From Candidatus Saccharimonadota bacterium (GTDB lineage Bacteria > Patescibacteriota > Microgenomatia > UBA1406 > GWC2-37-13), in contig CP064967.1 in NCBI GenBank assembly GCA_016699265.1, positions 1-32,000 of the forward strand: a DNA stretch of 32,000 nucleotides, in the 5' to 3' direction. The position numbers and the translations under genes were made by a program. Each line of letters starts with the position of its first letter. Position 1 is the stretch's first letter. Positions 6,294 through 30,542 of the stretch are shown one piece after another. Below the pieces are notes generated by a model, which did no database searches, was not told the origin of the DNA, and worked only from the letters and a program-made list of their open reading frames with translations.

Positions 6294-6364
6294 GCCCGGA
6301 TAGTTAAGTGGCAAAATAAGCCCTTGGTAAGGGCTAGGCACGGGTTCGATTCCCGTTCCGGGCT
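6294..6364 (+). tRNA. tRNA-Thr (anticodon GGT), CCA not encoded
   Basis: Hand-folded. Acceptor GCCCGGA/TCCGGGC, anticodon stem AGCCC/GGGCT with loop TTGGTAA, T arm ACGGG-TTCGATT-CCCGT. Weak 3-bp D stem. The last base overlaps the stop codon of the convergent PBP gene. Confidence 0.85.
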
Positions 6365-10925: not shown

Positions 10926-11023
10926 CTTGAGTTATGGGTTACAAGCTACACGCTTCGTGCAAAATGTTCGCATAAACGAACTTTCAGTATACTGTACTGC
11001 TTATCAGAAGCAATAGGAAGATG

Positions 11024-11094
11024 TCGGGGTGCGGGGAATTGAACCCCGGTCTCACGACCCCCAGCCGCGAATTCTGCCGTTAAACTACACCCCG
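11024..11094 (-). tRNA. tRNA-Pro (anticodon GGG), CCA not encoded
   Basis: Hand-folded on the minus strand. Acceptor CGGGGTG/CACCCCG, anticodon stem CGCGG/TCGTG with loop CTGGGGG, T arm CGGGG-TTCAATT-CCCCG, discriminator A. Confidence 0.85.
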
Positions 11095-11133
11095 ATTCGT
11101 CTATTCTACCAGCATTTTGATACAATGAGCCAC

Positions 11134-14592: not shown

Positions 14593-15024
14593 CTATTTCT
14601 TTAATGGTTGTACTGGCGTAGGTTGTGGGTTGACAGAGGTCGGTTGAACAGTTGGGAGATACTTCTGGACCATAGCGACGACTTGATTTGGGGCAAGGTC
14701 CGCCTTCACAAGAACATTTGTCGCTCCTTTTTGCATTGCTTCTTTGATCGCTGGGTCATGGGATAAATTTGTCCAGACAATGATTACAGGCATCTTTGCC
14801 GGTTTAGGTGACTCAGTCTGAAGCTTGGTAAGGACACCAAGACCATCCAATTTAGGCATCATAACATCTAGAAGAACTAAGTCATAGCCTCCTGTTCTAA
14901 TTTTGTTTAGACCCTCTTCCCCGTCCACCGCAAACTCAATCGTGTAGCCTGCTGTTTTTAGTACTTCGTCATAGAGCTCTCGAAGCGTAGGATCGTCATC
15001 AACGACTAAAATTCTGTTTGCCAT
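14593..15024 (-). CDS. receiver-only (CheY-like) response regulator with a Pro/Gln/Thr-rich C-terminal tail
   Basis: MANRILVVDDDP, LLDVMMPKLDG, conserved Lys region. No output domain. The tail reads PTVQPTSVNPQPTPVQPLKK. Start trimmed to the Met at 15024. Confidence 0.85.
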   Translation of the reverse strand: MANRILVVDDDPTLRELYDEVLKTAGYTIEFAVDGEEGLNKIRTGGYDLVLLDVMMPKLDGLGVLTKLQTESPKPAKMPVIIVWTNLSHDPAIKEAMQKGATNVLVKADLAPNQVVAMVQKYLPTVQPTSVNPQPTPVQPLKK

Positions 15025-15081
15025 AATCAAAGATACTATAGATAACTTCAATAACGATGTCAAATCCTCAACTTGCATCAG

Positions 15082-15087
15082 TATAAT
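15082..15087 (+). promoter_or_regulatory. consensus -10 box TATAAT, 6 nt upstream of the pdaD ATG
   Basis: Read directly. No convincing -35 box and no SD. Confidence 0.4.
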
Positions 15088-15093
15088 GTTCAG

Positions 15094-15585
15094 ATGGAAA
15101 TACAGATAGTTACTTCAAGTGGTGAAGGGAGAACCTTGCTCTCCGCCTTTGACAGTGCACTACAGAATGCTGGTGTGTCTAACTATAATCTGATCGTACT
15201 TTCCTCAATAATTCCTCCCAATTCGACATTGGTAAAAAAAAGAATGTACACAACTCCGCCAGAGGAGTTTGGTCATCGACTCTATGTAGTAAGGGCTGAA
15301 ATGCGTAGCAATGAGGCGGGAAAGTTTATTGCAGCGGGAGTAGGTTGGTATCAACTCGAGGATGGAAGAGGCTATTTTGTCGAACATGAGATAGTTGGAG
15401 AAACAAAGATTGCAGTACAGTCAGAGATAGAGAATAGAATTCACAACTCATTGTCCGATATGTGCTCCTTCAGGAAGGTAAGATTTGTGAAAGAGAAGGC
15501 TCAATCTGCAATAGCTGTTTCGCAGGTGGTTGATAAGCCAGCATGTGTGTTGGCGGTCGCTGTTTATAGGTCCGAGCCATGGTAG
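15094..15585 (+). CDS. pdaD: pyruvoyl-dependent arginine decarboxylase (archaeal PdaD type)
   Basis: GEGRTLLSAFDSALQNAGVSNYNLIVLSSIIPP, including the Ser-Ser self-cleavage region. Length about 163 aa. Confidence 0.85.
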   Translation: MEIQIVTSSGEGRTLLSAFDSALQNAGVSNYNLIVLSSIIPPNSTLVKKRMYTTPPEEFGHRLYVVRAEMRSNEAGKFIAAGVGWYQLEDGRGYFVEHEIVGETKIAVQSEIENRIHNSLSDMCSFRKVRFVKEKAQSAIAVSQVVDKPACVLAVAVYRSEPW

Positions 15586-16472
15586 TTCTTACGGATAATG
15601 CGGTATTTCATAAGAAACTTCATAGGTCTCCAAAGAGTCTTTGCTGCTCTCAGATTCTGTTCACCGAGGTCCTGTTGAAAGTTGAGATAGCGATATCCTG
15701 TATTCGTTAGGTGTTCTGCAGTTTTCTTCATGAGATACTCTGTAACTCCGGTTAAGTTGTGATCGGTTTTTTCATAATGAATCATGGCGTGCTGACCATG
15801 AAGGTTTTCCACTATCGCGAATGCGACAAGTTCCTTGTTATGATAAATACCGGTCCCAAAAACATGTTTATGTAGATGGAAAACATTCTTGAGACCTATC
15901 AGCTCATCTTCATTGAGCGGTCCCTTTTTATTTTGTTGCCACCTATCAACTAATGAAAAAATCTCTTTCTGAACATACTTATCGGATAGAGTTAGTAGTG
16001 AAAAAACACTGTCGGCGCCGTACTTTTTTTCGAATGTATGAGCTAAGTTACGCTTTTTCTTATAATTTTTTCCCTGGAGCTCTGCAATAGCCTCCAAATC
16101 ATATATATAGTCGTGCTGATCTCGATCTTCTAGAATTGAAAAGTGATGTCGAAGTTGTTTTAGTCGCCCTGCGATTACTGCAGGAATAAGACTGAGTTCT
16201 AACGATTCGGAATGGTCCATAAGTGTCTGAATTGATTCAGTAAGTTTTTCAGTACCTAGGATCGAGTATACAACGCCTTCTTTGGTGTAGTTCTTCAGTT
16301 TAATGATGAGGTTATTATTAAGGATGGAAAGTTCGGTTTTCCCGTCTGTATTCCAACCAAATAAACTCACGAAGTTGAAATCTGAGTAAGGGTCATACCT
16401 CCGAGTTATTAGATCTACGTGAGATTTATGCGACTTGATTATAGGAGCGAATCGAGGGAATGCGGGAATCAT
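15564..16472 (-). CDS. stand-alone DUF2156 / lysyl-phosphatidylglycerol-synthase C-terminal-like (GNAT-fold) protein
   Basis: About 302 aa. The N-terminal DFNFVSLFGWN pattern and the length fit DUF2156. Start at 16472, 4 nt after the EamA stop. 22-nt convergent overlap with pdaD. Confidence 0.55.
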   Translation of the reverse strand: MIPAFPRFAPIIKSHKSHVDLITRRYDPYSDFNFVSLFGWNTDGKTELSILNNNLIIKLKNYTKEGVVYSILGTEKLTESIQTLMDHSESLELSLIPAVIAGRLKQLRHHFSILEDRDQHDYIYDLEAIAELQGKNYKKKRNLAHTFEKKYGADSVFSLLTLSDKYVQKEIFSLVDRWQQNKKGPLNEDELIGLKNVFHLHKHVFGTGIYHNKELVAFAIVENLHGQHAMIHYEKTDHNLTGVTEYLMKKTAEHLTNTGYRYLNFQQDLGEQNLRAAKTLWRPMKFLMKYRIIRKNYHGSDL

Positions 16473-16476
16473 ATTT

Positions 16477-17373
16477 TTAGGTAATGAGGAGAATGCCAAA
16501 CACCGTGAAAATGGCAAGTATAAACTTCTTGATTAAGGTAGACCTTCGGATATCCTCCTTAAATATTTTAGGAAACTTTTTTGTAAGAAACCAACCATAA
16601 AGGACACCGAACAGCACCTGTGTTCCTCCAAGAACGCTGACCTGCGCCGTTGGACCAAGTGAATATGCGTAATATGTAACTGACTTTGCGATTACGAAGA
16701 TTACTTCATTTACAAAAACAATAAAAATAATCTTAAGACCAGCGGTTTGTACAGTTTTGTGGAAGGCGCGTCTTTTTTTTGGGAAAAAAAGGTAAAGGAT
16801 AAGTCCTCCAACTCCAATTCCCCAACTTTCGTAACTTAAGATCTCGGTGAAGGAGTTGGCGTTAATCGCAAGTGTAACTAAGACCGCCGCAACGGCCCAA
16901 AAAGCATCAGCTATCAATACGAGTATTAGAGCTTTGTTAAGTCGGAATCGTGCACCACCTGTTTTTTTAAGAGCATACGTTGTGGCCGCTAAAATTATTA
17001 AAAAACCAAATCCCTGAACGGTAGTGAGTGACTCATGAAGAAAAATAATAGAAAGTACAAGCACCATCAGAGGGATAGCCTGAAAAAATAGGACGACATT
17101 ACTGGCTTCTTCTGAGGACAGAGCTTTAAAATAAAAAACAGTCCCCCAAATGGTAAAGACACCGCTCAATATGAGAATGAGAGCATCGAATGGTTGGAGA
17201 ATGGGGTAGTTGGACAAAGCCCAAAATAATAACCCAATGACAAATCCTGTGATAGATCCGAAGATTGGCATTGCCGAGTAGTCCTTAATTTTACGACTAA
17301 TGATGTATTTATCGATGAAGTTAATAATTACATAGATGGCAGGTCCAAGAAGTGCGAAGAATAACCAATTCAT
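16477..17373 (-). CDS. EamA/DMT-family transporter
   Basis: 298 aa. About 10 TM segments arranged as two similar halves. TATACT (complement of 17380-17385) lies 6 nt upstream of the ATG. Confidence 0.6.
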   Translation of the reverse strand: MNWLFFALLGPAIYVIINFIDKYIISRKIKDYSAMPIFGSITGFVIGLLFWALSNYPILQPFDALILILSGVFTIWGTVFYFKALSSEEASNVVLFFQAIPLMVLVLSIIFLHESLTTVQGFGFLIILAATTYALKKTGGARFRLNKALILVLIADAFWAVAAVLVTLAINANSFTEILSYESWGIGVGGLILYLFFPKKRRAFHKTVQTAGLKIIFIVFVNEVIFVIAKSVTYYAYSLGPTAQVSVLGGTQVLFGVLYGWFLTKKFPKIFKEDIRRSTLIKKFILAIFTVFGILLIT

Positions 17374-17430: not shown

Positions 17431-18243
17431 ATGCATCTGGTCCGCAAGCATTGGCAGTCGCAGATTGTGGTACTTTACTTTTTGGGTTTCCTCATATGGT
17501 GGACACTCGTAACTATGGGTGAGCAACCAGGGAGCATATATCATCAGTCCTTTGCGGCTTTATACGGACTTATTGCTATCTGGGGAGGAATCTGGGGTCT
17601 TGTTGCAGCAAAGAAGTGGGGAGGCCTCTCAAGTATTATGGGGAAAGCTCTTACTGCATTTTCCCTAGGACTATTTGCACAGGAATTCGGGCAACTGTCG
17701 TACTCATATTACATCTACTATCTTCATCAGGAAGTGCCATATCCTTCAATCGGAGATTTAGGTTATTTTGTCAGCATTCCACTCTACATCATCGGAACAT
17801 GGCATCTACTCCATGCCTCAGGAGCTAAGGTTAGTGTACGTACATTACGTAACAAGGTCGTTGCAATAATTATTCCAGTTGTCATGTTGGTAGCATCCTA
17901 TGCGTTTTTTCTAAAGGGTTATCAGATAGATTCTTCTCAACCTCTCAAACTTTTTCTTGATTTTGGTTACCCACTCGGTGAGGCAATTTATGTTTCTATA
18001 GCTCTCCTAACTTATGTACTCTCCAGACATTCATTAGGTGGCATTGTGCGCTCAAGAATAATTTTTATTCTCTTTGCTATGTTTATCCAATACTGCGCAG
18101 ATTTCATGTTTTTGTTTCAAGCTCAATATCAGACATGGTATGCGGGTGGGGTTAATGATCTTGTATATTTTGCAGCATACGTGGCGTTGTCGCTTGCTCT
18201 GATGGAGTTTGATATTCTTGGAAAAAAACTTGCACAAAAATAA
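17431..18243 (+). CDS. polytopic membrane protein, unknown function
   Basis: 270 aa, 7-8 hydrophobic segments. First gene of a co-directional string ending in the histidine kinase. Confidence 0.55.
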   Translation: MHLVRKHWQSQIVVLYFLGFLIWWTLVTMGEQPGSIYHQSFAALYGLIAIWGGIWGLVAAKKWGGLSSIMGKALTAFSLGLFAQEFGQLSYSYYIYYLHQEVPYPSIGDLGYFVSIPLYIIGTWHLLHASGAKVSVRTLRNKVVAIIIPVVMLVASYAFFLKGYQIDSSQPLKLFLDFGYPLGEAIYVSIALLTYVLSRHSLGGIVRSRIIFILFAMFIQYCADFMFLFQAQYQTWYAGGVNDLVYFAAYVALSLALMEFDILGKKLAQK

Positions 18244-18244
18244 T

Positions 18245-18532
18245 ATGAGTACTACCATCTTTTCAAAGTTGATTATTCGCATAATTCAAGCCCAAGAAGG
18301 TATCATCGGGCCGATCGCCCTTGAACAAGCACAAAAAGTCTCAGGACTTAATGTCGACTGGAAACAGAAAGAAGTGGAGATTAGCGGAGATGAAAAAAGC
18401 GTTGTCGACGGTCTTATCCAACAGTATAAACAGCTTTTTGGACAGTCATCTGTTGAGTTCTGCAAAGAGGCGGTCAAGGAGCTGATTGGCGAGATTCCCT
18501 CCGATCAAAGGCCTTCATTGCTCTTACCCTAA
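18245..18532 (+). CDS. small soluble protein, unknown function
   Basis: 95 aa from the ATG 2 nt after the preceding stop (the ORF is open from 18209). No motif recognised. Confidence 0.45.
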   Translation: MSTTIFSKLIIRIIQAQEGIIGPIALEQAQKVSGLNVDWKQKEVEISGDEKSVVDGLIQQYKQLFGQSSVEFCKEAVKELIGEIPSDQRPSLLLP

Positions 18533-18591
18533 ACTGCTTAATTTTTTTGCAGAGAAACATATAGGGTTCAACATATGACATAATGATTTTT

Positions 18592-19977
18592 ATGTCTACA
18601 ATTTCTGGTACTGTTACATCCCCGAGCAATGGCAGTGATCTAAGTCACATCAATGAGGAGATCTACAAAAAAAATGCCGAGCTTGCTGGGAAGAATAAAG
18701 TTCTGCAACTTCTACGCAAAATCGATGAAATAGTACTTAGCACTATCACCGATCCAAAACAGATTGGCGAGCAGGTAACAGAGTTAATTGTGCAGGAGAT
18801 TGGGTTTAGGTGTGTGGGGATATTTAAACTTCAAAACGGGATACTTGAAAACATAGGATTAGGGCTTTCGGGAGAGATTCAAGAACAAGAAAGAAAATTG
18901 AAAGATTTGTTCAGAGACAATGCCCTTGTAGCAGTTGAGAGTGCGGATAATCTCATTGTGAAGGCGACTAATGAAAAACAAAAGAAGGTTACCAAGTATC
19001 TGTTTGACGTACTTCATCCAATGACCGATATGAACGATGCTTCCCTCATACAATCTACACTGCATATAAAAACAGCCATTGTCTTTCCTATGATAGTGAG
19101 AGATGACCTGCTTGGTGCGCTCATGATATTACTTAGTGAGGATGAAGAGGCAATCACCCGACTAAAAGGCGATGTTATGGAGAGACTTGCGGGCGTAATT
19201 GGTATCGCACTTGATAACGCGCTGCTTTACAAAGAGACTCAGGAGGCAAACATAAAACTCAAGCAGCTTGATAAATTAAAGGATGAGTTTGTTTCAATAG
19301 CGTCTCATGAACTTAGAACGCCAATGACAATTGTTCGTTCATATCTTTGGATGTTAATGCAGGCTCAAAATGGTGCTCTAAGCGAAAAGCAAAAACTATA
19401 TGTTGATAGAGCGTATGGATCTACGGTTCGATTAATCCACCTCATAAACGATATGCTTGATACTTCTCGGATTGACTCTGGAAGAGTGGTGATAAATCTC
19501 GAACCCATCGATATGGCGTCACTTGTTCAGGAAATTGTGTCCGAAACTCAGACAAGAGCTGAACAACTCGGACTTACCTTGCAGATGGAGAGTCGAGCGT
19601 TACCAAAGGTAATGGCAGATCGTGAAAAAATTAGAGAGGTGATAGTTAATCTGGTTGGAAACTCTATGAAGTTTACGTCAAAAGGTGGCACTATTCTTAT
19701 CAAATTCGAGATTGGAGAAGATATGGTAACCACGAAGGTGGTAGATACGGGAATGGGATTTACTAAGGAGTATGAGGGAATGCTATTCCAAAAATTCGGT
19801 TTCATTAAAACTTCATACCAGATGAACAAGAGCGATAATGGAGGTACGGGTCTTGGACTATACATCTGTAAATCGATCTTAGATATGCATGGAGGGTCTA
19901 TAAGCGCAATGTCACAAGGACCCAACAAAGGATCGGTATTTAGCTTTACACTAAAACAATATCATGAGACGAAATAA
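18592..19977 (+). CDS. cytoplasmic GAF-domain sensor histidine kinase
   Basis: H box SHELRTPMT, N box NLVGNSMKFT, G boxes DTGMGF and GGTGLGLYICK. No TM segment. GAF-like region upstream of the H box. Alternative ATG at 18583; 18592 is preferred because CATAAT (18579-18584) lies 7 nt upstream. Confidence 0.85.
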   Translation: MSTISGTVTSPSNGSDLSHINEEIYKKNAELAGKNKVLQLLRKIDEIVLSTITDPKQIGEQVTELIVQEIGFRCVGIFKLQNGILENIGLGLSGEIQEQERKLKDLFRDNALVAVESADNLIVKATNEKQKKVTKYLFDVLHPMTDMNDASLIQSTLHIKTAIVFPMIVRDDLLGALMILLSEDEEAITRLKGDVMERLAGVIGIALDNALLYKETQEANIKLKQLDKLKDEFVSIASHELRTPMTIVRSYLWMLMQAQNGALSEKQKLYVDRAYGSTVRLIHLINDMLDTSRIDSGRVVINLEPIDMASLVQEIVSETQTRAEQLGLTLQMESRALPKVMADREKIREVIVNLVGNSMKFTSKGGTILIKFEIGEDMVTTKVVDTGMGFTKEYEGMLFQKFGFIKTSYQMNKSDNGGTGLGLYICKSILDMHGGSISAMSQGPNKGSVFSFTLKQYHETK

Positions 19978-20509
19978 GTGGTCGAAATTAGAGCTCGCCT
20001 CACTAGAGCTAAAAAAAATCAATAAACTCATTTGGCGAAGTGGGTACTCAATTCCAGAGCTTCTGGTAGTTATGGTAATCATAGGAGGGCTGTTCTTTTT
20101 GGGAAGCGATACGCTATTTGCTCCACAGCGCAAGAATACCTCTGAGACAACGATAAACACATTACTTGCAGAGATATCTAATCAGCAAAATAAAAGCATG
20201 AGTGGAGATATAGGATCTGGAACTGTGCAAAATAGCTATGGACTTTACTTCACATCTACAAGCTACACTACATTTAGAGGAACAGTGTACTCTGGCGGGA
20301 ACAGCACAAACTTCACAACTACGTTGCATCCTGATCTGAGATTTAGCACGATTGATCTTCCAAGCTCGCAGATAATTTTTGCCACATCGAGTGGATCGAT
20401 TCAAGGATATTCAGCATCCCACAACTCGGTTGTCTTGCAGGATTCAGTAGGAAGCGTCACTAAAACACTACGATTTAATCAATATGGAGTTGTGGAAAGC
20501 GTTCAGTAA
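19964..20509 (+). CDS. minor pilin / pseudopilin-like protein with a 27-aa leader
   Basis: Class III signal: ...IWRSG then YSIPELLVVMVIIGGLFFL, with Gly at -1 and Glu at +5. Overlaps the kinase stop by 14 nt. Confidence 0.7.
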   Translation: MRRNKWSKLELASLELKKINKLIWRSGYSIPELLVVMVIIGGLFFLGSDTLFAPQRKNTSETTINTLLAEISNQQNKSMSGDIGSGTVQNSYGLYFTSTSYTTFRGTVYSGGNSTNFTTTLHPDLRFSTIDLPSSQIIFATSSGSIQGYSASHNSVVLQDSVGSVTKTLRFNQYGVVESVQ

Positions 20510-20510
20510 A

Positions 20511-20608
20511 CGTATCTCGTATAACGTATATCGTATGAAAAAAACTCGAAAAAAAATGTCAAAACAAATAGTGGATACGGTATACCAAATACGAAATGCG
20601 GTATACGA
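20511..20608 (+). repeat. pilin-leader module: 4 CGTATNN heptads (covering the ATG), an A-rich spacer, 5 NATACGN heptads
   Basis: CGTATCT CGTATAA CGTATAT CGTATGA (20511-20538). GATACGG TATACCA AATACGA AATGCGG TATACGA (20574-20608). Confidence 0.85.
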
Positions 20609-23519
20609 AAAGGGTCAGATGCTCGTTGAACTGATTCTTGTAATGGGACTATTCGCTCTATTAATACCGGCTTTGTCTGAAGGGTTTCTTTCTACGCGTG
20701 ATGGAAAAGCACAGCAAAGCCAAAGAATAAATGCCGTAGCTTTTTTACAAGAGGCAAAAGAAGCGGTTAGGGTAATTAGAGAGAGTGGGTGGGTAAATGT
20801 CTCCACAGACGGAATGTATCATCCTGCAGTTTCAGGATCAACATGGTCACTTGTATCGGGCACGGAAACTATCGCGGGCCTGACTCGAAGTATAACGATT
20901 AGTAGCGTGCAGAGGAATGCTTCTGGAGCAATTGTGACCACTGGTGGTTCGGTTGATCCATCTACAAAAAAGGTAGACGTTATCGTAAGTTGGACACAAC
21001 CAAGATCCTCATCGATTACAGCAAGCCTGTATCTAACTAGATATCTCGATAATGGAGCATTTATACAAACGACACAAGCAGAGTTCGATACGGGAACCAA
21101 GACAAATACAGCTACAACGAATACGAGCGGAGGTGAGGTTCAGATGTCGAATAATAACAAAGCGAAGTGGTGCTCCCCAGCTTTTTCTTCAGGTACGATT
21201 GATCTTCCTGATGGCCCGCCAGTAGCCGTATCTGCTACCGCAAGTGCATCGGTGAATAACCCGAATGATGTGGTTGCCGTTGTGGCACCATTTGCTACAA
21301 CCTCGGCAAAGATGGCTCATGTTCGAGTCACGGCAAATACAGATCCACCATCGTCAACTCTTCGTGGAACCTTTACTCTTGACGCGAGTAAGTACAGTGA
21401 TGCAGGTTACGTACCGTCCGGTATAGATCTGACCAATAGTTTCAAAACCAATGATGTGCAAACATACACATCCTCCAGTGGAAAAAAATATGCACTCATC
21501 GCTACAGACCTTCCAGATCATGAAGTCGTTGCCGTGCTGTATGACGATGGAAATGCAGCGAATGATACCGACGCATCTGGTGAATTTGCAGATCCCGTTA
21601 GCAAGATTTATAAATACTGGACTTTTTTTAATACCACCATATATAGCGCGACCGATACTGGGATGAGAAGTCCCTCTGCAAACAGCGTAGATACTGGTGG
21701 AGACGGAAATGGATTTGAATCAAACCCTACACGGGCATACTCGATCAACAATTCCTTTGCGGTGGACACTAATAGTGGAAGTGGAACGGGTACGAGCTGT
21801 ACTGGGTCGGATAAAGATAGGCACCGATACTACAACTATAGCCTAAGTATACCTTCAGGTGCTGCAATACAAGGAGTTGAGGTGCGACTCGACTCGAAGG
21901 CTGACAGCAGTACTGGTAATCCTCAGCACTGTGTCCAGCTTTCTTGGGATGGCGGATCTAACTGGACTACGGCAAAGACGACGAGCACACTCGCCACCGG
22001 AACGTCTACCTTTACCCTTGGTGGATCGGCAGATACATGGGGTAGGTCATGGAGCGATACCCAATTCTCAAATGCCAACTTTCGAGTTCGAGTAATTAAT
22101 GTAGCGAGTAATATTTCAAGAGATTTTTCGCTCGATTATGTAGGTGTAAAGGTGTCTTATAGCGGAGGAACATCTCCAACCAACGATCAGTCACCATTTG
22201 GGTATGGAGCTACTTCCTTAACCGTTATGCAGGATAAAGGCTATGTTGCCTCAGGTGGCTATTTGTACGTCATGGATCTGAGCAATATTGACAGTAAATC
22301 GCCAACAAATGGACTTGATGTTGTTGGATGTAGGATTGAGGTTGATGGTTATGAATGTAAGCCAGCCGATGGCACCGATAGAAAATATGCATCGGGCGAG
22401 ACCGGTACTTCATGGAGTGATACGACAACTCCCGCCCATGCCAGCACCTGCGCAGATGGAGGAAATATTGAGCTATACGCAACGAATGATGTCTTTCCCG
22501 TATATTCGGGTGGTAGGACATATATTTATGCTGCCGTTGGTGCTGGTACAAATCCTGAATTCGATATAGTCGATGCTACCGACGTTCCCAATTCATCAAG
22601 CAGTCCCGCAGTTAGTAGTAGTTCATGCGGGCGTTCCTCCGGTGGAAACAGCGGATGGAAGAAAGTGGGATCATTCGATTTTAACACCGCATCAGGGACT
22701 GAAGAAGCAGCGAACTCTGTTTTTGCTAAGTCGGATGGAACTAGAGCCTACGTTTCTTCAAACGGAGGTGCTGACAGTAAACAGTTTTACATTTTGAATA
22801 CGACTACCAAAACAGCTCCAACCTTCCTATCAGGTGCGAATAATGGCACAGGTCCAGCAACGGGCTATTACAACGCTGCCGGTGCGGATGGTGAGATGTA
22901 TCCAAGAAGATCGATGACTGTACTAAATGGTCAAAGAGTCGTATTGGTCGGTAAAGATGGGATCACTAATGGAACCGATGCTCAGGAGTACCAGGTTCTT
23001 AATAGTGAAACAGAAGCAACGCCAACATACTGTGGGGGTCTCAACTTTGATCAAGGATTTAATGATCTCACATCTGTTTCAGAGGCTGATTATGACAATT
23101 TTGTATATATGGTCGCCAATACTAACTTAAATGAGCTTAAGATTATTCAAGGAGGACCGGATGGAACGTACAACGCAAACGGAACCTTTGAGTCGCCAAC
23201 CTTTGATCCTGGATTTAATGCAACCTTTAACCGATTTTTTTCGACGACAACAATTCCGGCGTTGACCAACGTGCAGTACCAATTTGCTACTGCCGATCCC
23301 ATCTCAGGAAGTTGTTCTGGAGTGAGCTTTAATTTTCTCGGACCTGATGGAACGGCAAGCACATACTATACCCCATCTGGAAGCCCCGTTCTACTTGATG
23401 ATGACGGATCGGGGTATGAGAATCCTGGTCGTTGTTTTAGATATAAGGCTTTTTTTGACTCGACCGATCAAAATCAGACAGCTGTGATTCAGGATATGAC
23501 CGTTAACTATTCACCATAA
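20535..23519 (+). CDS. giant pilin-fusion surface protein (about 994 aa): prepilin-type N-terminus plus a large Ser/Thr/Gly/Asn-rich extracellular region with propeller-like repeats
   Basis: Leader MKKTRKK...YQIRNAVYEKG, then QMLVELILVMGLFALL with Glu at +5. A pseudopilin-like globular start follows (VDVIVSW). Repeats such as YVASGGYLYVMDLSNIDSKSP and YIYAAVGAGTNPEFDIVDATDV resemble LVIVD-type blades. The ORF is open from 20484, but the MKKT start parallels the paralog at 24138. Confidence 0.75.
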   Translation: MKKTRKKMSKQIVDTVYQIRNAVYEKGQMLVELILVMGLFALLIPALSEGFLSTRDGKAQQSQRINAVAFLQEAKEAVRVIRESGWVNVSTDGMYHPAVSGSTWSLVSGTETIAGLTRSITISSVQRNASGAIVTTGGSVDPSTKKVDVIVSWTQPRSSSITASLYLTRYLDNGAFIQTTQAEFDTGTKTNTATTNTSGGEVQMSNNNKAKWCSPAFSSGTIDLPDGPPVAVSATASASVNNPNDVVAVVAPFATTSAKMAHVRVTANTDPPSSTLRGTFTLDASKYSDAGYVPSGIDLTNSFKTNDVQTYTSSSGKKYALIATDLPDHEVVAVLYDDGNAANDTDASGEFADPVSKIYKYWTFFNTTIYSATDTGMRSPSANSVDTGGDGNGFESNPTRAYSINNSFAVDTNSGSGTGTSCTGSDKDRHRYYNYSLSIPSGAAIQGVEVRLDSKADSSTGNPQHCVQLSWDGGSNWTTAKTTSTLATGTSTFTLGGSADTWGRSWSDTQFSNANFRVRVINVASNISRDFSLDYVGVKVSYSGGTSPTNDQSPFGYGATSLTVMQDKGYVASGGYLYVMDLSNIDSKSPTNGLDVVGCRIEVDGYECKPADGTDRKYASGETGTSWSDTTTPAHASTCADGGNIELYATNDVFPVYSGGRTYIYAAVGAGTNPEFDIVDATDVPNSSSSPAVSSSSCGRSSGGNSGWKKVGSFDFNTASGTEEAANSVFAKSDGTRAYVSSNGGADSKQFYILNTTTKTAPTFLSGANNGTGPATGYYNAAGADGEMYPRRSMTVLNGQRVVLVGKDGITNGTDAQEYQVLNSETEATPTYCGGLNFDQGFNDLTSVSEADYDNFVYMVANTNLNELKIIQGGPDGTYNANGTFESPTFDPGFNATFNRFFSTTTIPALTNVQYQFATADPISGSCSGVSFNFLGPDGTASTYYTPSGSPVLLDDDGSGYENPGRCFRYKAFFDSTDQNQTAVIQDMTVNYSP

Positions 23520-23626
23520 AGCTTAGAACTCGAAACATAGAATTTGGAACTTAAGAATACTATGACAAAAATAACAAACACTTTTTCAATAAACGCAGCC
23601 ACAGCAAGTTCTATGTTCCACGCTCT

Positions 23627-24094
23627 ATGAATAAAGGCACAACTCTCATCGAAATTATTATCTACATGGGTATTTTTGGAATTATTCTTATTGTCTTGTC
23701 TAATTTCTTTATCTCTACGATTGAGATAAAGCGAGAATCCGAGGCTGTTTCATACACGGCACAGGATGTGCGATTTTTGCTACAACGTCTAACGTATGAC
23801 ATCAAGAATGCTACCTCGATTACTACGCCAGCCACACTTGGAGCTCAAGGGTCCGTGTTGACCGCTGTGGTTAACGGAGTTACAAACACCTATACATTAA
23901 CAGGAACGAATCTAACCCTAAACGGTGTTCAGCTCAACGGTTACAATACAAACATAAGTAACCTTTCATTTCAGCGCCTTGGAAACAACGGAGGTAAACA
24001 CTCTATTAAGATAGCTCTTACCGTAACGGGTAAGGTGCGGAAAGCTAGTGGCCTAGAAGTAGCGATTGTACAGACAGCAGTTGCGTTGCGGTAG
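23627..24094 (+). CDS. minor pilin / pseudopilin (PulJ/PilW-like) with a short leader
   Basis: MNKG then TTLIEIIIYMGIFGIILIV, with Gly at -1 and Glu at +5. 155 aa. Confidence 0.75.
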   Translation: MNKGTTLIEIIIYMGIFGIILIVLSNFFISTIEIKRESEAVSYTAQDVRFLLQRLTYDIKNATSITTPATLGAQGSVLTAVVNGVTNTYTLTGTNLTLNGVQLNGYNTNISNLSFQRLGNNGGKHSIKIALTVTGKVRKASGLEVAIVQTAVALR

Positions 24095-24211
24095 GTTAGT
24101 ATTTCGCCTGCCTGCCGGCAGGTATAACGTATAGCATATGAAAAAAACAAAACAAAAAAGAAACAGGATCTTACCTAGTACTAAATACCAAATACGAGAT
24201 ACGGCATACGA
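24095..24211 (+). repeat. pilin-leader module: TAGTATTTCG, GC hairpin, CGTAT-like heptads at the ATG, A-rich spacer, 4 NATACGN heptads
   Basis: GCCTGCCTGCCGGCAGGTAT (24106-24125). GGTATAA CGTATAG CATATGA (24121-24141). AATACCA AATACGA GATACGG CATACGA (24184-24211). Confidence 0.85.
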
Positions 24212-24572
24212 ACATGGGCAGGCTCTTGTGATGCTTATTTCCTTTGTCGCAATTGCTATTGTTGTGATCTCGAGCGCGCTTATCAATATGTTTATAAATA
24301 TGACGGCAGCAACACGCACTCAGGTAGGAGATATAGCATATTCAGTTGCCGAAAGTGGTGCGGAAAACGCATTGCTAAGATTATTGCGCGATACCTCCTA
24401 TGCGGGTGAAACCTTAGCTGTTGGATCCGGGAGTGCGGTTGTTACTGTAAGCGGGACAAATCCCAAAACAATCATCTCTACGGGTACTTACGGATCATTT
24501 AAAAGAAAGATTCAGGTTGTTGCTAGTGACAGTGCGGGTATACTTAGTGTAACGTCCTGGAAGGAGCAGTAA
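24138..24572 (+). CDS. PilX-like minor pilin-like protein with a 27-aa leader, lacking Glu+5
   Basis: Leader MKKTKQK...YQIRDTAYEHG, then QALVMLISFVAIAIVV. AESGAENALLRL and a C-terminal ...STGTYGSFKRKIQVV resemble PilX_N-type proteins. Confidence 0.65.
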   Translation: MKKTKQKRNRILPSTKYQIRDTAYEHGQALVMLISFVAIAIVVISSALINMFINMTAATRTQVGDIAYSVAESGAENALLRLLRDTSYAGETLAVGSGSAVVTVSGTNPKTIISTGTYGSFKRKIQVVASDSAGILSVTSWKEQ

Positions 24573-24577
24573 TCAGT

Positions 24578-25618
24578 ATGGCAGATAAAAAAGTATCACT
24601 CATTTTAATTGACAAGAATAAACTTTGGTTGTATTCAGGCGCAACGGGAGAGATTCTTAATCTCGATTTTCCCACAACGGTCATGAAGGACATGGAGGTC
24701 CTAAACAGAGATCTTCTAATAAAACAGTTCGAGTCATTTCTAAGTGTCCATAAAGTCGACGGCCCACGCGTTGATATAGTTATTGCTCCGTCACTTCTTT
24801 TTATCAAAGATTTTTCAGGAATAGAGGAGCCTAAGAAGGAGGAGGCGATTAAATCATTTGTAGATAATGTTCCCTTCGATTCCACAGCTAAAACTACGAT
24901 GCATATGGACAAAGTTGTAAGAGTGATTGTTGCCAATAAAGACCTCATCATTCTCATTAAGCACTCACTTGAGAAACGGAAGTGTGAGGTTCCTTTAATT
25001 CTTCCAGCTACGGTAATTACAAATGTATCAATCTCATCTGCGCTCGATCCACAGATAGCCAAGGCGGTACTCGGACAGACCGACTCACTAAAAGCCTATA
25101 ATCTATTAGACACGGGTCCGGCTATTAATCCACTGAAAAATATTACGGCAAACGCCGCTGATAAAAGCCATCCGAAGCGACTCCCATTATTGCTCAGCAT
25201 GTTTGGTGGACTAATTTCGGTACTTATTGGGGTTGCGGTCGTTACCAATAGACAACCAACGATTCCGGCATCCCAAGCATCCGTCGTACTCAACCCTTTT
25301 CCGTCTTTGGCAAAACCTACAATAGTAGCGTCTCCAAGCGCAATAATAAGTACGCTAAGAATTGATCTTATGCGCACAGACCAGGCTGCATCTAAGTCTT
25401 CACAGCTTCGAACTTCACTTAAAAATTTAGGAATAACAGATTTGAAAGAGCTGGTCGATAACACGATCGTATTAGAGTCTTCACAGCTAGTTTTCTCTCA
25501 AGCGATTCCAGTCGTGGTCCAGGAACAAATAATAAACATCGTCAAGACAGTTGAGCCAGTATTCTCCACGAAGGTTGTAACCGGACTTAGTAGGGATGTA
25601 GAGATTCGTTTAAAATGA
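24578..25618 (+). CDS. bitopic membrane protein, candidate pilus assembly platform component (GspL/PilM-PilN-like topology)
   Basis: 346 aa. About 195-aa N-terminal soluble part, one TM (LPLLLSMFGGLISVLIGVAVV), about 130-aa C-terminal part. The only gene in the block with a clear SD (AAGGAG, 11 nt upstream). No sequence motif recognised. Confidence 0.5.
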   Translation: MADKKVSLILIDKNKLWLYSGATGEILNLDFPTTVMKDMEVLNRDLLIKQFESFLSVHKVDGPRVDIVIAPSLLFIKDFSGIEEPKKEEAIKSFVDNVPFDSTAKTTMHMDKVVRVIVANKDLIILIKHSLEKRKCEVPLILPATVITNVSISSALDPQIAKAVLGQTDSLKAYNLLDTGPAINPLKNITANAADKSHPKRLPLLLSMFGGLISVLIGVAVVTNRQPTIPASQASVVLNPFPSLAKPTIVASPSAIISTLRIDLMRTDQAASKSSQLRTSLKNLGITDLKELVDNTIVLESSQLVFSQAIPVVVQEQIINIVKTVEPVFSTKVVTGLSRDVEIRLK

Positions 25619-25661
25619 AGACCGTCAATATCTTCCAAATCTTTGTCTCTTTATTTACCCC

Positions 25662-25690
25662 TTGACAAAGTTCAGCACTTTCTTTTTAAT
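25662..25690 (+). promoter_or_regulatory. sigma70-like promoter of the major pilin gene
   Basis: TTGACA (25662-25667), 17-nt spacer, TTTAAT (25685-25690). The -10 ends 2 nt before ATG 25693 and 8 nt before ATG 25699. Confidence 0.5.
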
Positions 25691-25692
25691 GG

Positions 25693-26187
25693 ATGTATAT
25701 GATAAAAAATGGATCAAACCTAAACAAAAAGGGTTTTACCCTTATCGAGCTTTTAGTAGTTATTGGAATCTTGGCAGTGTTGCTAGCAATCACGATTATT
25801 GCTATTAACCCAGCAAGACAGTTTGCAAATGCGAACAATACGGCACGACGAAGTGCGGTTACACAGATCTTAAATGCTGTCGGAGCATATGTAGCTGAGA
25901 ACCAAGGTCAGTTGCCAGCAGAAGTAACAGCATTAGTAGCTGCTACGCCAACAACCTTAAATGCTACGAACTTTCCAGCACTTTGCGCACAGTTAGTGCC
26001 AACATATATTTCGGCACTACCTACCGATCCAACTTTGAATGATGGAAATGGTATCGAGTCAGCTGACTGTGCAGCGGCAACCCCAGTATGGAACACTGGA
26101 TACAGCATCTCACGCGATGCAAACAACAGAATCACTGTTGCAGCACCAAGCGCAGAGAATGCGGCTGTGATCTCGGTCACAAGATAA
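25693..26187 (+). CDS. major type IV pilin
   Basis: Canonical prepilin signal NKKG then FTLIELLVVIGILAVLLAI. Two Cys in the C-terminal region (CAQL, ADCAA). It has its own promoter and a strong terminator. The true start may be ATG 25699. Confidence 0.85.
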   Translation: MYMIKNGSNLNKKGFTLIELLVVIGILAVLLAITIIAINPARQFANANNTARRSAVTQILNAVGAYVAENQGQLPAEVTALVAATPTTLNATNFPALCAQLVPTYISALPTDPTLNDGNGIESADCAAATPVWNTGYSISRDANNRITVAAPSAENAAVISVTR

Positions 26188-26204
26188 GTCAAACAACGTT
26201 AATT

Positions 26205-26237
26205 AAAAATCCTCCGACGAGTTCGGAGGATTTTTTT
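26205..26237. terminator. strong intrinsic, potentially bidirectional terminator
   Basis: A-run, 9-bp stem ATCCTCCGA / TCGGAGGAT with loop CGAGT, then T7. Confidence 0.85.
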
Positions 26238-26316
26238 ATATAATTAAGTCCATAGCGGACATTGTTGGTATGGTTGTATTGTGATTACGGCCATGGAGCC
26301 ATGTAACTATGCAACT

Positions 26317-28023
26317 ATGTTTCTACAGAGGTTTTGGATTACGTTATTTTTAGTCTTTATTTCTTGCTTCGGACTTAATAGTGCGGTCGATGCATTCGAT
26401 CAGTCGCGCACAAATAACATGTTTGGCATTCACGTGGCAACTCCAAGTAGGGAAGAACTTGAGAATGCAGCTAAGCTGGTTAATACAAACGGAGGTAACT
26501 GGGGATATGCAACCGTCGTAATTCAGGAAAATGATAGGAATAAGCAAAAATGGCAGGAAGCATTTGATCGAATGAGAGAATTGCGGCTCATACCAATAGT
26601 CCGACTAGCTACAAAACCAATAGGAAGTACATGGGCACGTCCAAAACCCGATGAAATTAGTAACTGGGTGAATTTTTTAGACTCATTAAACTGGGTAGTA
26701 AAAGACCGATATATAGCGTTGTTTAATGAACCAAATCACGGCCAGGAATGGGAAGGGGAGGTTTCTCCTGAGGAGTTTGCAGATATTAGCCTAAGGTATA
26801 TAAAAGCCTTAAAAACCTCAAATAGTGAGTATTTTACAATGCTTGGAGGGCTGGATCTCGCGGCCGCAAGCAACGGTGAGGACATGGATGAGTACGAATT
26901 TTTAAGAAGAGTCTTTATAAGTAAGCCAGAGTTGAAAGAGTCAATAGACGGTCTAAGTTCGCATTCATATCCAAATCCTGGATTCAGTGGGAGTCCAAGC
27001 GCGGTTGGGAGGCTGTCGATACATGGATATGAGTGGGAGTTGGAACTATTGAAGGAGTTGGGTGTGAAGAAAGAGCTTCCAGTTTTTATTACTGAGACCG
27101 GTTGGATTCATAGTGGAGCCGATCCTACAGGTCTTGATGAAAAATTTATAACTGCATTTTCTATATGGAAGGCCGATCCTAGAGTCAGAGCTGTTACACC
27201 TTTTATTCTAAGCTACCAAAGTGATCCATTCCTTCAATTTTCATGGCAAAAACCAAATAGCCAGGAGTTTTATTCTCATTATCATGCTGTTACCGAAATG
27301 AATAAGATCTTGGGAGATCCAGATCAGGTTCAAAAAGGCGAACTTAAGCAGACGCTTCCAAACGATCTTCTAGCCGACTCAACCTACCACTTTACTGTGA
27401 AGTTACGCAATGATGGACAGGCTGTCTGGACAAGTAAAGATGGATATGCGATGAAGTTCGCTATTCCAGAGAAGAAAGAAGGACTTGAGTATTTTTTTGG
27501 CAACTTAGACGGAATTAAGCCTGGAGATGAGCGGGAGATAGATCTATACATGAAGACCTCAGATCAAGGACATGCAAGACAAGCAGAACTAAATCTGTAT
27601 AAGAACGACAGAGAGGTTCTCAAGAGCGTTAAGTGGTCGTTTAGGGTTTTACCATTGCCCAGTTTAGTTATTAAGACGTCTTTATTTCCAAGAATTCGAG
27701 CAAAAAAAGAACGAGATTTCGAACTTCAAATATTTAATAATAAGGAAGAGCTTGTATTTAAACAGAAGGGAATAAGACGAATAAACGGAGAGCTACAGGT
27801 TCCCGAAGTTAAAAATGTATACCTAAAAGGAACGTTCCGAGTTGTAATCCTGTCACAGTACTATCTTCCTAGGCAAACCTTCGTCCGTTTTGAGAAAGGA
27901 TTAAATACTGCGAGTATTAAGGCAATGTTGCCGCTCGATTTCTTTCCTGACGGCACCTTCAGTTGGAGAGATATATTCGAAGTTCTTAAAAACCCACGAC
28001 TACTTGGTCTTTTTCTTCCCTGA
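26317..28023 (+). CDS. secreted clan GH-A-like (beta/alpha)8 glycoside hydrolase-like protein with a C-terminal beta-rich extension
   Basis: Signal-like MFLQRFWITLFLVFISCFGLNSAVDA. NEP motif (ALFNEPNHG) and FITETGW about 120 aa later fit acid/base and nucleophile spacing. The ORF is open from a GTG at 26281. Confidence 0.55.
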   Translation: MFLQRFWITLFLVFISCFGLNSAVDAFDQSRTNNMFGIHVATPSREELENAAKLVNTNGGNWGYATVVIQENDRNKQKWQEAFDRMRELRLIPIVRLATKPIGSTWARPKPDEISNWVNFLDSLNWVVKDRYIALFNEPNHGQEWEGEVSPEEFADISLRYIKALKTSNSEYFTMLGGLDLAAASNGEDMDEYEFLRRVFISKPELKESIDGLSSHSYPNPGFSGSPSAVGRLSIHGYEWELELLKELGVKKELPVFITETGWIHSGADPTGLDEKFITAFSIWKADPRVRAVTPFILSYQSDPFLQFSWQKPNSQEFYSHYHAVTEMNKILGDPDQVQKGELKQTLPNDLLADSTYHFTVKLRNDGQAVWTSKDGYAMKFAIPEKKEGLEYFFGNLDGIKPGDEREIDLYMKTSDQGHARQAELNLYKNDREVLKSVKWSFRVLPLPSLVIKTSLFPRIRAKKERDFELQIFNNKEELVFKQKGIRRINGELQVPEVKNVYLKGTFRVVILSQYYLPRQTFVRFEKGLNTASIKAMLPLDFFPDGTFSWRDIFEVLKNPRLLGLFLP

Positions 28024-28752
28024 GATCCATTTGGCCTTGGTTAATATCGGCGCAAATACGTCATCTTCTATGGAGATTGAGAGACTTTTTAACTCCTCCG
28101 AAGTTGGATTGCGGCGCTGGTACCTTACAAACGATGTATCTTCAACGATGGCTATAGGAGTAGATTCGGCGCCTTCTCCCATGGCAAGAACGGTTGAAGC
28201 CCCTAGACCTTCATATATACTCGATCTAGTTACCCGCATTCGATAGTTAAAAAGATCCTTCTTTCCGACATAATTATTTAGAGCACTGAAGCCACTATAA
28301 GCGAGAGTTGTCCCTACAGTTCCCCAGCGCAGAGGTGTTGTTTTACTATCAACAATTATCACGCCTAAATTTTTAACTTTATGTTTACGAACAAGATGGC
28401 TACGAATTCCGTTTACTGTTTTCTGCATATTACGTGGCCAAAGAACGTAGAAACCATTACCATTTGACTCGTCAATACCTGCCGAAGCAATCATTGTTCC
28501 ATTTTTTATCGTCAGATGAAAACCGTATTTATTTGAAGCAAGTGGAAGATAGAGATCAGCCTCTTTCTCAACAAGCGATTGTTTTTTAAGATTGCCCTTA
28601 GGAACAACCGCTCCTTCGCAGATTGAAATAATTTTTGAAGTAATTGCAACTATGGATCTTTCCTTTAGCTTTGGTACGTATCTGTCTAAAATCTTAAGTA
28701 GATCGGAGTCCTTTACGGTGATCTTATGAGTTTTGATTGGGGTTATTTTCAT
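28000..28752 (-). CDS. CofE-family (F420-0:gamma-glutamyl ligase-like) protein
   Basis: MKITPIKT..., IVAITSKIISICEG, GIDESNG, IIVDSKTTPLRWGT, GLGASTVLAMGEGAESTPIAIV. Start trimmed to 28752. 24-nt convergent overlap with the GH-like gene. Confidence 0.7.
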   Translation of the reverse strand: MKITPIKTHKITVKDSDLLKILDRYVPKLKERSIVAITSKIISICEGAVVPKGNLKKQSLVEKEADLYLPLASNKYGFHLTIKNGTMIASAGIDESNGNGFYVLWPRNMQKTVNGIRSHLVRKHKVKNLGVIIVDSKTTPLRWGTVGTTLAYSGFSALNNYVGKKDLFNYRMRVTRSSIYEGLGASTVLAMGEGAESTPIAIVEDTSFVRYQRRNPTSEELKSLSISIEDDVFAPILTKAKWISGKKKTK

Positions 28753-29450: not shown

Positions 29451-30542
29451 ATGGACACAAGTCTTCCATACTATCTCGGTTTTTCTCACTTTTTAGGTAT
29501 TGGACCAATTAAGTTCAATGCTCTACTTAGTAAATACGAGATAGAAGAGGCCTACAATCTATCGGAAGATGTACTGGCTGGAATTGTGGGAGCACAAACG
29601 AGTAGGAAGTTTGTACAGTTCCGAAAAGATTTTGATCCTCAAAAAAAACAAGAGGAGTTTGCGCACAGGAAAATTGAGGTTGTGAGTCGTAAAGATAGCA
29701 GATATCCAAATCAGCTAAAAGAGCTTTCAGATGCTCCAATTTGCTTATATGTAAAAGGAGATAGCCGACTTTTTACAGATGAGAGGCAATTTCATTTTGC
29801 AGTAGTTGGGACTAGGAAGGCATCGCCATATGGACTGAAAATAACAAGGGAAATCGTGCAGGATCTTTGCGGTCGCAACTCCAATATCTGTATAGTCTCG
29901 GGTCTTGCTTATGGAGTTGATGCTGTCGCGCATGAAACCACGCTTGAGTTTGGAGCAAATACAATAGCCTTTCTTGGCTGTGGAGTTAATATTATGTATC
30001 CGTATGGGAATAGACATATATATGACAAGATTATTTCAGGCGGAGGAGTAGTTGTTTCGGAATTTCCACCAGATCAGACGGTTGTCCCAGGGTTGTTTAT
30101 AGCCAGAAACAGGTTAATATCCGGGCTGTCTCGAGGGGTGTTGATCGTTGAGGGAACGAAGACCTCTGGGGCGCTTATCACCGCTCGGTATGCCGCCGAG
30201 CAAGGGAAAGATGTATTTGCATTACCTGGACAGATAAATACGACCTTATCAGAGGCTCCGAACATTCTCATTAAAGAAGGAGCGATTATCGTTACCTCAA
30301 CAAACGATATTGCAGATTATTACGCTTTTGGTCAGAAGGTTTTAAAAAGTGAAAGGTCCGAACTTAAGTTATCTGTGGACGAACTGGCAGTATATAGTTA
30401 TTTAGAAAAGAACCCTAGGCTTATTGACGAGGTAGTACAGGAGCTTCAATACCCAGCTCAGCACATAATGACGCTTCTTTCGAGACTTGAACTCGAAGGA
30501 GTGGTGGTGCGTCGATCTGATGAGAAATACTACGTTAAGTAG
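29451..30542 (+). CDS. dprA: DNA-processing protein DprA (Smf)
   Basis: 363 aa. VVGTRKASPYG, SGLAYGVDAVAHE, SGALITARYAAEQGKDVFALPG, C-terminal winged-helix-like tail. Confidence 0.9.
   Translation: MDTSLPYYLGFSHFLGIGPIKFNALLSKYEIEEAYNLSEDVLAGIVGAQTSRKFVQFRKDFDPQKKQEEFAHRKIEVVSRKDSRYPNQLKELSDAPICLYVKGDSRLFTDERQFHFAVVGTRKASPYGLKITREIVQDLCGRNSNICIVSGLAYGVDAVAHETTLEFGANTIAFLGCGVNIMYPYGNRHIYDKIISGGGVVVSEFPPDQTVVPGLFIARNRLISGLSRGVLIVEGTKTSGALITARYAAEQGKDVFALPGQINTTLSEAPNILIKEGAIIVTSTNDIADYYAFGQKVLKSERSELKLSVDELAVYSYLEKNPRLIDEVVQELQYPAQHIMTLLSRLELEGVVVRRSDEKYYVK

Follow-up and report, generated by a model that had tools for sequence, protein, structure and literature searches.

A large candidate minor pilin with a predicted propeller and jelly-roll cassette nested in its head, encoded in a type IV pilus locus of a Microgenomates bacterium

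We analyzed a stretch of 32,000 nucleotides (the window; contig CP064967.1 of assembly GCA_016699265.1, positions 1 to 32,000 of the forward strand) from a Candidatus Saccharimonadota bacterium, uncultivated and with a small genome, that the GTDB places in the Microgenomatia. The gene under study, at 20535-23519 on the plus strand, encodes a large pilin-like protein and occupies the second minor-pilin slot of a pilB–pilC–pilin operon; Table 1 lists its parts and the neighboring genes, with the pilin genes numbered by slot. The gene is an uninterrupted open reading frame (ORF) of 994 codons plus a stop, as stated in a first-pass annotation of this DNA. An in-frame ATG upstream, at 20484, offers an alternative start that would add 17 residues (1011 amino acids [aa] in total). 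No Shine–Dalgarno sequence is visible ahead of either candidate ATG (20535 or 20484), and either start falls within the leader that the predicted cleavage would remove.

A homologue search returned 487 homologues, the best 120 of which share 55-76% identity with the query across the full length, and 20535-23519 is therefore not a chance ORF. An identical protein is annotated as a hypothetical protein in a metagenome-assembled genome of the Microgenomates group. A sequence scan over 1.84 billion representatives gave 4286 related proteins, and a scan with one genome per species gave 227 loci, the named records among which are Woesebacteria, Levyibacteriota, Shapirobacteria, Roizmanbacteria, and Microgenomates; the many records titled uncultured Gammaproteobacteria were set aside for taxonomy. 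Two alignments were used below, a close one of 61 homologues and a distant one of 72 relatives that are 30-55% identical. Pfam and NCBIfam searches with the whole query gave no match at E ≤ 1, and neither did sequence-profile searches of the PDB with the whole protein, the cassette described below, or the pilin head; PHROGs likewise gave none. Ser, Thr, Gly, Asn, and Asp make up 46% of the 994-aa protein and 48% of the part past residue 200, and there are exactly 10 Cys (residues 213, 422, 466, 599, 608, 639, 698, 833, 927, and 967), so that the composition described in the first-pass annotation stands. All 10 Cys are 100% conserved in the alignment of 61 homologues.

Table 1. Parts of the large pilin gene and neighboring genes of the operon. 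A slash in a motif marks the end of the leader; structural and functional names are predictions from the evidence in the last column.
Feature	Nucleotides	Residues	Strand	Evidence
Whole gene, 994-aa candidate modular minor pilin, plus stop	20535-23519		+	ORF list, translation, homologues
Leader peptide, basic, ends in Gly27	20535-20615	1-27	+	Family N termini, G27 conservation
Pilin module: alpha1-N with Glu32 (+5), helix to 84, beta-sheet 93-168	20616-21050	28-172	+	AlphaFold2, conservation
N-terminal strands of beta-sandwich	21051-21149	173-205	+	Short homologues P0245, P0198
Conserved linker (LPDGPPVAV, C213) and blades 1-2	21150-21650	206-372	+	DSSP, conservation
Jelly-roll cassette, 171 residues, CBM-like	21651-22163	373-543	+	AlphaFold2, Foldseek, absence in P0020
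Blades 3-7, Cys-rich hairpin 599-639, Ser-rich loop 686-697	22164-23162	544-876	+	DSSP, LVIVD alignment
C-terminal beta-sandwich, C927/C967	23163-23516	877-994	+	DSSP, conserved in all size classes
Short strands		174-204		DSSP of AlphaFold2 model
Blade 1		231-281		DSSP of AlphaFold2 model
Blade 2		305-365		DSSP of AlphaFold2 model
Beta-rich separate unit		373-543		DSSP of AlphaFold2 model
Blade 3, four-stranded		561-596		DSSP of AlphaFold2 model
Blade 4, four-stranded		652-714		DSSP of AlphaFold2 model
Blade 5, four-stranded		726-776		DSSP of AlphaFold2 model
Blade 6, four-stranded		788-836		DSSP of AlphaFold2 model
Blade 7, three strands		842-873		DSSP of AlphaFold2 model
C-terminal beta domain strands		882-993		DSSP of AlphaFold2 model
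PilB extension ATPase gene	11735-13435		+	T2SSE E 6e-126 with MshEN
PilC platform protein gene	13432-14490		+	T2SSF E 8e-48
Response-regulator gene, between pilC and kinase gene	14593-15078		-	Response_reg match
Histidine kinase gene, overlaps start of slot-1 pilin gene	18583-19977		+	HisKA, HATPase_c
Slot-1 minor pilin, 181 aa, G/YSIPE	19964-20509		+	TIGR02532 17.9 bits (above cutoff); weak N_methyl, PRK10506
Slot-3 minor pilin, 155 aa, G/TTLIE	23627-24094		+	Weak N_methyl E 0.0018, ComGF E 0.005
Slot-4 pilin-like, 144 aa, G/QALVM, no Glu+5, GspK/PilX-like	24138-24572		+	Weak GspK E 0.03
Bitopic 346-aa protein, one predicted membrane span	24578-25618		+	Slot conserved; no Pfam/NCBIfam match
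Major pilin, 164 aa, canonical G/FTLIE	25693-26187		+	N_methyl E 2e-8, TIGR02532 E 4e-8, GspG/ComGC-like

The N terminus reads MKKTRKKMSKQIVDTVYQIRNAVYEKG27/Q28MLVE32LILVMGLFALLIP, and prepilin-peptidase cleavage is predicted between G27 and Q28. Throughout the family, the leaders are basic, 5-30 aa long, variable in both length and sequence, and Gly-ended, and they are followed by the pattern G/Q-x-[LI]-[VI]-E and a hydrophobic stretch. Gly-1 (G27) and Glu+5 (E32) are at least 90% conserved in the 61 close and the 72 distant homologues alike. The protein thus has the elements of a class III signal, i.e., a basic leader ending in Gly, a hydrophobic stretch, and Glu at +5. Pilin models are matched by a considerable part of the 72 relatives (N_methyl [PF07963], 24/72; TIGR02532, 7/72; ComGE, 33/72), a few of which match GspI, XpsI, or GspH, and one relative weakly matches the archaeal Class_IIIsignal model, which carries Gln at +1. 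An AlphaFold2 model of the whole protein, built on the 61-sequence alignment (mean predicted local distance difference test [pLDDT] 83.6), shows a 61-residue helix (24-84) followed by six antiparallel strands (93-168), with a pLDDT of 84-89. Judged from this predicted secondary structure, residues 24-168 have the lollipop fold of pilins.

The leader-coding part of the gene contains a 28-nt segment, ATACCAAATACGARATRCGGYATACGAA, that is present exactly twice in the window (20582-20609 and 24185-24212; chance expectation 0). The second copy lies in the leader-coding part of the slot-4 pilin-like gene, and both genes begin with ATGAAAAAAAC. The mature parts of the two proteins are unrelated, and P0002, the closest homologue of the large pilin, has a different leader. 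The shared segment could stem from a recent gene conversion of the leader or could be a common cis element.

Beyond the pilin module, the AlphaFold2 model contains seven sets of strands that form a predicted seven-bladed propeller. Foldseek searches of the PDB with the whole model gave 209 matches at E ≤ 1e-3, mostly beta-propellers (DDB1, WD40, phage nozzle), with template modeling (TM) scores that are low because the query is multi-domain. These matches are to generic propellers and cannot separate propeller families or rank PilY1. Among the 72 relatives, 37 match LVIVD (PF08309; best E 5e-39), 20 the NCBIfam model choice_anchor_B, and 8 Beta_propel, and the LVIVD match in homologue P0137 aligns with blade 4 of the query. 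A predicted propeller fold and a conserved prepilin N terminus, whose absence the first-pass annotation had named as grounds for giving up its reading, were thus both found. Of the propeller itself, that annotation had recognized five repeats at 22230-23160, which correspond to blades 3-7; two further blades lie upstream (residues 231-365, approximately 21225-21629). We also considered membership of the PilY1 family and rejected it, as the PilY1/PilC propeller signature (IPR008707 and the Pfam model) is found in neither the query nor the 72 relatives and no PilY1 chain appears in the PDB profile search at E ≤ 10. PilY1 is not within the top 50 Foldseek matches.

The propeller appears to interrupt another domain. 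In two short homologues, P0245 and P0198 (295-309 aa), the segment up to residue 205 runs straight into the C-terminal domain (877-994), which is kept in the 295-, 651-, and 800-aa forms of the protein and which had been overlooked in the earlier domain list; P0245 gives a weak F5/8-type-C match (E 0.07). Because the short forms join both halves directly, we infer that residues 173-205 pack against 877-994 as one beta-sandwich split by the propeller.

The propeller is itself interrupted. The first-pass annotation had placed a beta-sandwich module at about 21870-22160; the module is real but spans residues 373-543 (21651-22163), so that it separates blade 2 from blade 3 instead of preceding the propeller. 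P0020 (800 aa) lacks exactly residues 373-543 and has flanks that are 86% identical to the query. AlphaFold2 modeling of the isolated cassette, using 121 sequences, gave a pLDDT of 96.7 and a predicted TM score (pTM) of 0.92. The nearest structures in the PDB according to Foldseek are the carbohydrate-binding modules (CBMs) CBM4-2, CBM22, CBM32, and CBM16 (probability 1.00 each), the carbohydrate-binding domain of BcsB, and SGBP-B, with E ~1e-4, TM scores of 0.45-0.55, and identities of ~10%. The cassette has an Asp-box-like motif (SWDGGSNW), three Trp (477, 502, and 506), and a Cys pair (C422/C466); the three Trp are invariant, and the Cys pair and SWDGGxxW are at least 90% conserved. Better structural matches to the cassette than those of the CBMs come from predicted phage proteins, tail fibres among them (TM up to 0.77, 25% identity). 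This resemblance is at the fold level only, since a tblastn search of 50,697 phage genomes with the cassette gave no match. Nor did the cassette sequence match anything in Pfam, NCBIfam, the PDB, or PHROG.

The cassette is a mobile unit. Going by protein labels, secreted proteins of Anaerolineae/Chloroflexota, Nitrospirae, Manganitrophaceae, Micromonosporaceae, Methylobacter, and Acidobacteria carry it at 50-65% identity; there it stands beside PA14, PKD, fn3, CARDB, CHAP, M14 peptidase, CBM96, and CBM64 domains; the CBM96 and CBM64 matches fall outside the cassette. It lies at most 5 residues from the C terminus in 34 of 52 carrier proteins and is present in at least two copies in 19 of the 52. 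Judging by this distribution, it looks like a substantial domain family without an assignment and behaves as accessory binding modules do. Four related proteins (P0126, P0128, P0131, and P0136) carry two to three tandem cassettes in large secreted proteins, beside RHS, TIG, He_PIG, and lipase-like domains. At the nucleotide level, TATAGCG (Tyr-Ser codons) flanks the cassette of the query on both sides (21640-21650 and 22150-22165), and a relative that lacks the cassette has a single junction at this site (locus L082, 7020-7040); the flanks may represent microhomology or chance.

The company that the cassette keeps raises the question of whether the protein is an enzyme delivered by the pilus, with the propeller acting as a glycosidase or lyase and the cassette as a substrate-targeting CBM. 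The occurrence of the cassette on hydrolases (M14 peptidase, CHAP, esterase), its Asp-box-like motif, and a sialidase at rank 49 among the propeller matches could be taken that way. We consider this explanation very improbable, given that Pfam, NCBIfam, and PDB sequence searches revealed no catalytic family and that the best fold matches are non-enzymatic scaffolds. We know of no activity of LVIVD propellers.

Mapping of matches among the related proteins sorted them into size classes: query-like proteins of ~990 aa; proteins of ~800-830 aa that lack residues 373-543; proteins of ~620-700 aa with smaller central blades; and proteins of ~300 aa, where 877-994 directly follows the pilin module (up to residue 205). 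One and the same operon slot holds a protein of 295 aa in locus L080, 651 aa in L081, 800 aa in L082, and 1035 aa in L001, and L082 is otherwise syntenic with the window, from the deaminase gene through dprA. Based on the size classes, the gap in P0020, and the shared operon slot, the protein is read as a pilin carrying a beta-sandwich, with the propeller nested in the sandwich and the cassette nested in the propeller.

The conserved gene order, pilB-pilC...pilin-X-pilin-pilin-(227-376 aa)-major pilin, is seen in four other loci (L001, L080, L081, and L082). Slot 1 is filled in all four, slot 3 is conserved, and the pairing of kinase and response regulator recurs in L001 and L082. The slot of the bitopic protein encodes 376 aa in L001, 346 aa in L082, and 227 aa in L081; this protein may be an unrecognised component of the assembly platform. 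The pilin genes follow an order similar to H-I-J-K in type II secretion and type IVa minor pilins, which would put the large pilin in the GspI/PilV position, an assignment that is tentative because the supporting matches are weak. Counts from promoter and terminator scans of 18000-28200 did not exceed shuffle expectation, and the limits of the operon are therefore based on gene spacing only.

Several other genes lie within or near this block. Between pilC and the kinase–pilin block (15073-17373) are genes for a pyruvoyl-dependent arginine decarboxylase, an MprF C-terminal homologue (LPG_synthase_C), and an EamA transporter; pilB and pilC stand directly ahead of the pilin genes in L001 and L080. 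The major pilin gene is directly followed by a gene (26281-28023) for a protein of 580 aa that has a hydrophobic segment at its N terminus and weak GH5 cellulase/TIM barrel and fn3 matches, the position of which is not conserved in L001. In two other loci, the gene directly after the major pilin gene encodes a 576-aa fusion of a DsbD transmembrane domain with thioredoxin/AhpC (L001, 15821-17551; L002, 6149-7879). This gene, which bears on the ten invariant Cys, is absent from that position in the window. Farther upstream are the tRNA genes for His, Thr, and Pro (5124-5199, 6294-6365, and 11023-11094). Two ORFs, 4738-5205 on the minus strand and 11029-11613 on the plus strand, begin inside the antisense strand of tRNA-His and tRNA-Pro, respectively, and because of these antisense starts their N-terminal residues are translation artefacts.

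A dprA gene (29451-30542; DNA_processg_A, E 5e-71) is located ~3 kb downstream of the major pilin gene, both here and in L082, a placement that hints at a link between the pilus locus and DNA uptake. An association of type IV pili with DNA uptake has been described for this bacterial group (PMC6744442), and the first-pass annotation had listed DNA among the possible ligands, which would make the protein a DNA receptor of a competence pilus, similar to ComZ or ComEA. The mature protein is, however, acidic (isoelectric point [pI] 4.5; 95 Asp+Glu versus 60 Lys+Arg), every domain has a pI of at most 5.9, and the folds detected belong to carbohydrate-binding and propeller proteins. We considered a DNA-receptor role and rejected it on the basis of charge; the chance that it is correct seems slight.

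Taking these data together, we favor the interpretation that the protein is a modular type IV minor pilin of the Microgenomates that acts as a tip-displayed, glycan-binding adhesin (probability roughly 0.6). Prepilin peptidase would cut the leader after Gly27, and the hydrophobic helix, with its Glu+5, would dock the protein into the filament core alongside the three neighboring small minor pilins. The protein would then join the priming complex and end up at the pilus tip, a location suggested by the operon slot together with the pilin fold and the class III motif, which support incorporation with a minor-pilin priming complex. This would leave ~820 residues exposed, namely the sandwich carrying an LVIVD-type seven-bladed propeller, which in turn carries the CBM-like jelly-roll cassette. 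Five conserved Cys pairs probably stabilize this head; disulfide bonding is supported by the invariance of the 10 Cys and by the DsbD–thioredoxin gene abutting the operon in L001. The ligand of the head would be a conserved glycan on the surface of a partner cell or of a substrate, and the cell would then be attached or pulled through pilus dynamics. In the saccharibacterium TM7x (Nanosynbacter lyticus), the minor pilin PilX2 has a seven-bladed propeller and is required for host binding, PilX1 bears a jelly roll, and host cell-wall glycans affect binding (PMC11623550). A glycan-binding tip adhesin is favored because the head of the present protein unites these two fold types, which TM7x has on separate minor pilins. 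A more far-reaching version is conceivable but doubtful: the cassette, exchanged among phyla at 50-65% identity, would represent a new and very widespread carbohydrate- or cell-wall-binding family that Microgenomates recruited into a tip pilin, the series from 295 through 651 and 800 to 990 aa would record the stepwise building of a nested host-capture device, and the propeller would take over the role of PilY1 in both priming and adhesion.

Several observations weigh against the adhesin interpretation. The pTM of the whole-protein model is 0.59, so that the packing of the domains is uncertain, and both the number of blades and the pairing of the Cys were judged from secondary structure and conservation. 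The query itself has no match to Pfam LVIVD (PF08309), and the likeness of the cassette to CBMs, which comes from the predicted model, is at the fold level only. There is also the matter of conservation: in the alignment of 61 homologues, the pairwise identity is 61-77% for the head, with the linker as the best conserved region (77%), and 50% for the pilin module. A head that is more conserved than its pilin module is unexpected for a determinant of host specificity; as far as the alignment goes, the pattern suggests a conserved ligand and a conserved structural or priming role equally well. Finally, propeller-less or cassette-less forms occupy the same slot, meaning that propeller and cassette are dispensable for filling it.

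The conservation pattern is also the starting point for an explanation that we regard as unlikely, although less so than the other rivals considered here: the protein could be mainly structural, a PilV/GspI-type pilin with a PilY1-like propeller that nucleates the minor-pilin complex, starts assembly, and opposes retraction, with adhesion being secondary. Conservation is highest in the propeller and linker, the slot is never empty, being occupied in L080 by the 295-aa propeller-less form, and PilY1 together with minor pilins primes assembly in Myxococcus and Pseudomonas (cited in PMC11623550 and PMC8179133). On the other hand, the propeller-less and cassette-less forms sit in otherwise identical operons, which indicates that these parts are dispensable for assembly, and deletion of pilX2 in TM7x did not abolish filament extrusion (PMC11623550). 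The lack of PilY1/PilC matches described above also speaks against a priming propeller of this type.

Other contrary points concern the N terminus. The query does not match N_methyl (PF07963) or TIGR02532 at E ≤ 1, Gln takes the place of Phe or Met at +1, which is unusual for bacterial pilins, and the window contains no gene for a prepilin peptidase (pilD). The first two of these points would fit a membrane-anchored surface protein that is never polymerised, with the helix serving as an uncleaved signal anchor and the head working at the cell surface; PilX1 and PilX2 of TM7x are also not predicted to be PilD substrates (PMC11623550). Nevertheless, Gly-1 and Glu+5 are kept in relatives that are only 30% identical, which is hard to explain for a plain anchor, short homologues exceed the Pfam N_methyl cutoff, and both the predicted pilin fold and the fixed position of the gene among pilin genes argue for a pilin. 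A plain surface anchor is thus quite improbable, and the prepilin N terminus proposed in the first-pass annotation holds at the level of the family.

The lifestyle of Patescibacteria relies on other cells, and among their means of attachment the type IV pili have the best support. To our knowledge, the oral Saccharibacteria are the only such system tested experimentally so far, and the present data indicate that environmental Microgenomates also carry a propeller-bearing predicted tip pilin. Being unusually conserved, it is well suited as a marker and as a candidate for recombinant studies of binding directed at hosts and ligands. The series of sizes within a single operon slot clearly illustrates how pilins gain modules, and the cassette, a highly conserved cross-phylum domain without a family, is a possible new CBM that could be characterized on its own. 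New features appear to be the series of nested insertions, how strongly the protein is conserved among Microgenomates, and the cassette, which is unclassified and shared between phyla.

The individual parts of the protein can be compared with known systems. The cassette resembles jelly-roll CBMs (CBM4, CBM22, CBM32, CBM16, and the carbohydrate-binding domain of BcsB) in its fold and in its occurrence on secreted enzymes, where it forms an accessory module at the terminus or in tandem and is accompanied by true CBMs; it differs from them in that identity is only ~10% and TM ~0.5 and in that it falls in no Pfam CBM family. LVIVD/choice-of-anchor B proteins (PF08309, TIGR04312) are bacterial and archaeal cell-surface proteins of unknown function. 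Relatives of the query match both models, whereas the query itself is below threshold, and typical members have Sec signals, other anchors, and no pilin module.

Enlarged minor pilins offer a second comparison. GspK/PilX and CofB/TcpB are minor pilins at the tip that are enlarged by inserted (GspK) or C-terminal beta (CofB) domains. GspK lacks Glu+5 and has an alpha-helical insert, whereas the query keeps Glu+5, its slot-4 neighbor being the one without it, and the inserts of the query, unlike those of GspK and CofB, are a propeller and a jelly roll. PilY1/PilC is likewise a large propeller protein that has a role in adhesion and works at the pilus tip together with four minor pilins; it differs in not being a pilin, whereas the query has its own pilin module.

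Modular pilins form a widespread and established class and act as adhesins, examples being PilB (vWA) and PilC (ConA-like lectin) of Streptococcus sanguinis, and the InterPro survey that described them includes an 860-aa pilin of Candidatus Falkowbacteria with 12 IPR013211 motifs (PMC8179133). IPR013211 is the LVIVD repeat (PMC10210494). A pilin–propeller fusion, which the first-pass annotation called unusual, had thus been published, both in this survey and for TM7x PilX2 (PMC11623550). In these modular pilins, as in the present protein, a small pilin module bears a bulky functional module that is presumed to be at the tip; theirs is appended via a short linker, whereas here the modules are nested insertions. 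A domain-based survey would miss the cassette, because it has no database signature.

The likeness to TM7x PilX2 covers several features: both proteins are from Patescibacteria, combine a lollipop N terminus with a seven-bladed propeller, have a non-canonical signal that standard predictors miss, and are encoded among minor-pilin genes, and PilX2 has lectin-like similarity. The PilX2 propeller is of the RCC1 type, whereas relatives of the query match LVIVD; no RCC1 match was found in the query or the 72 relatives, PilX2 being compared by its description only. The main difference is one of arrangement, as the propeller and the jelly roll, which TM7x distributes over PilX2 and PilX1, are nested here in one chain.

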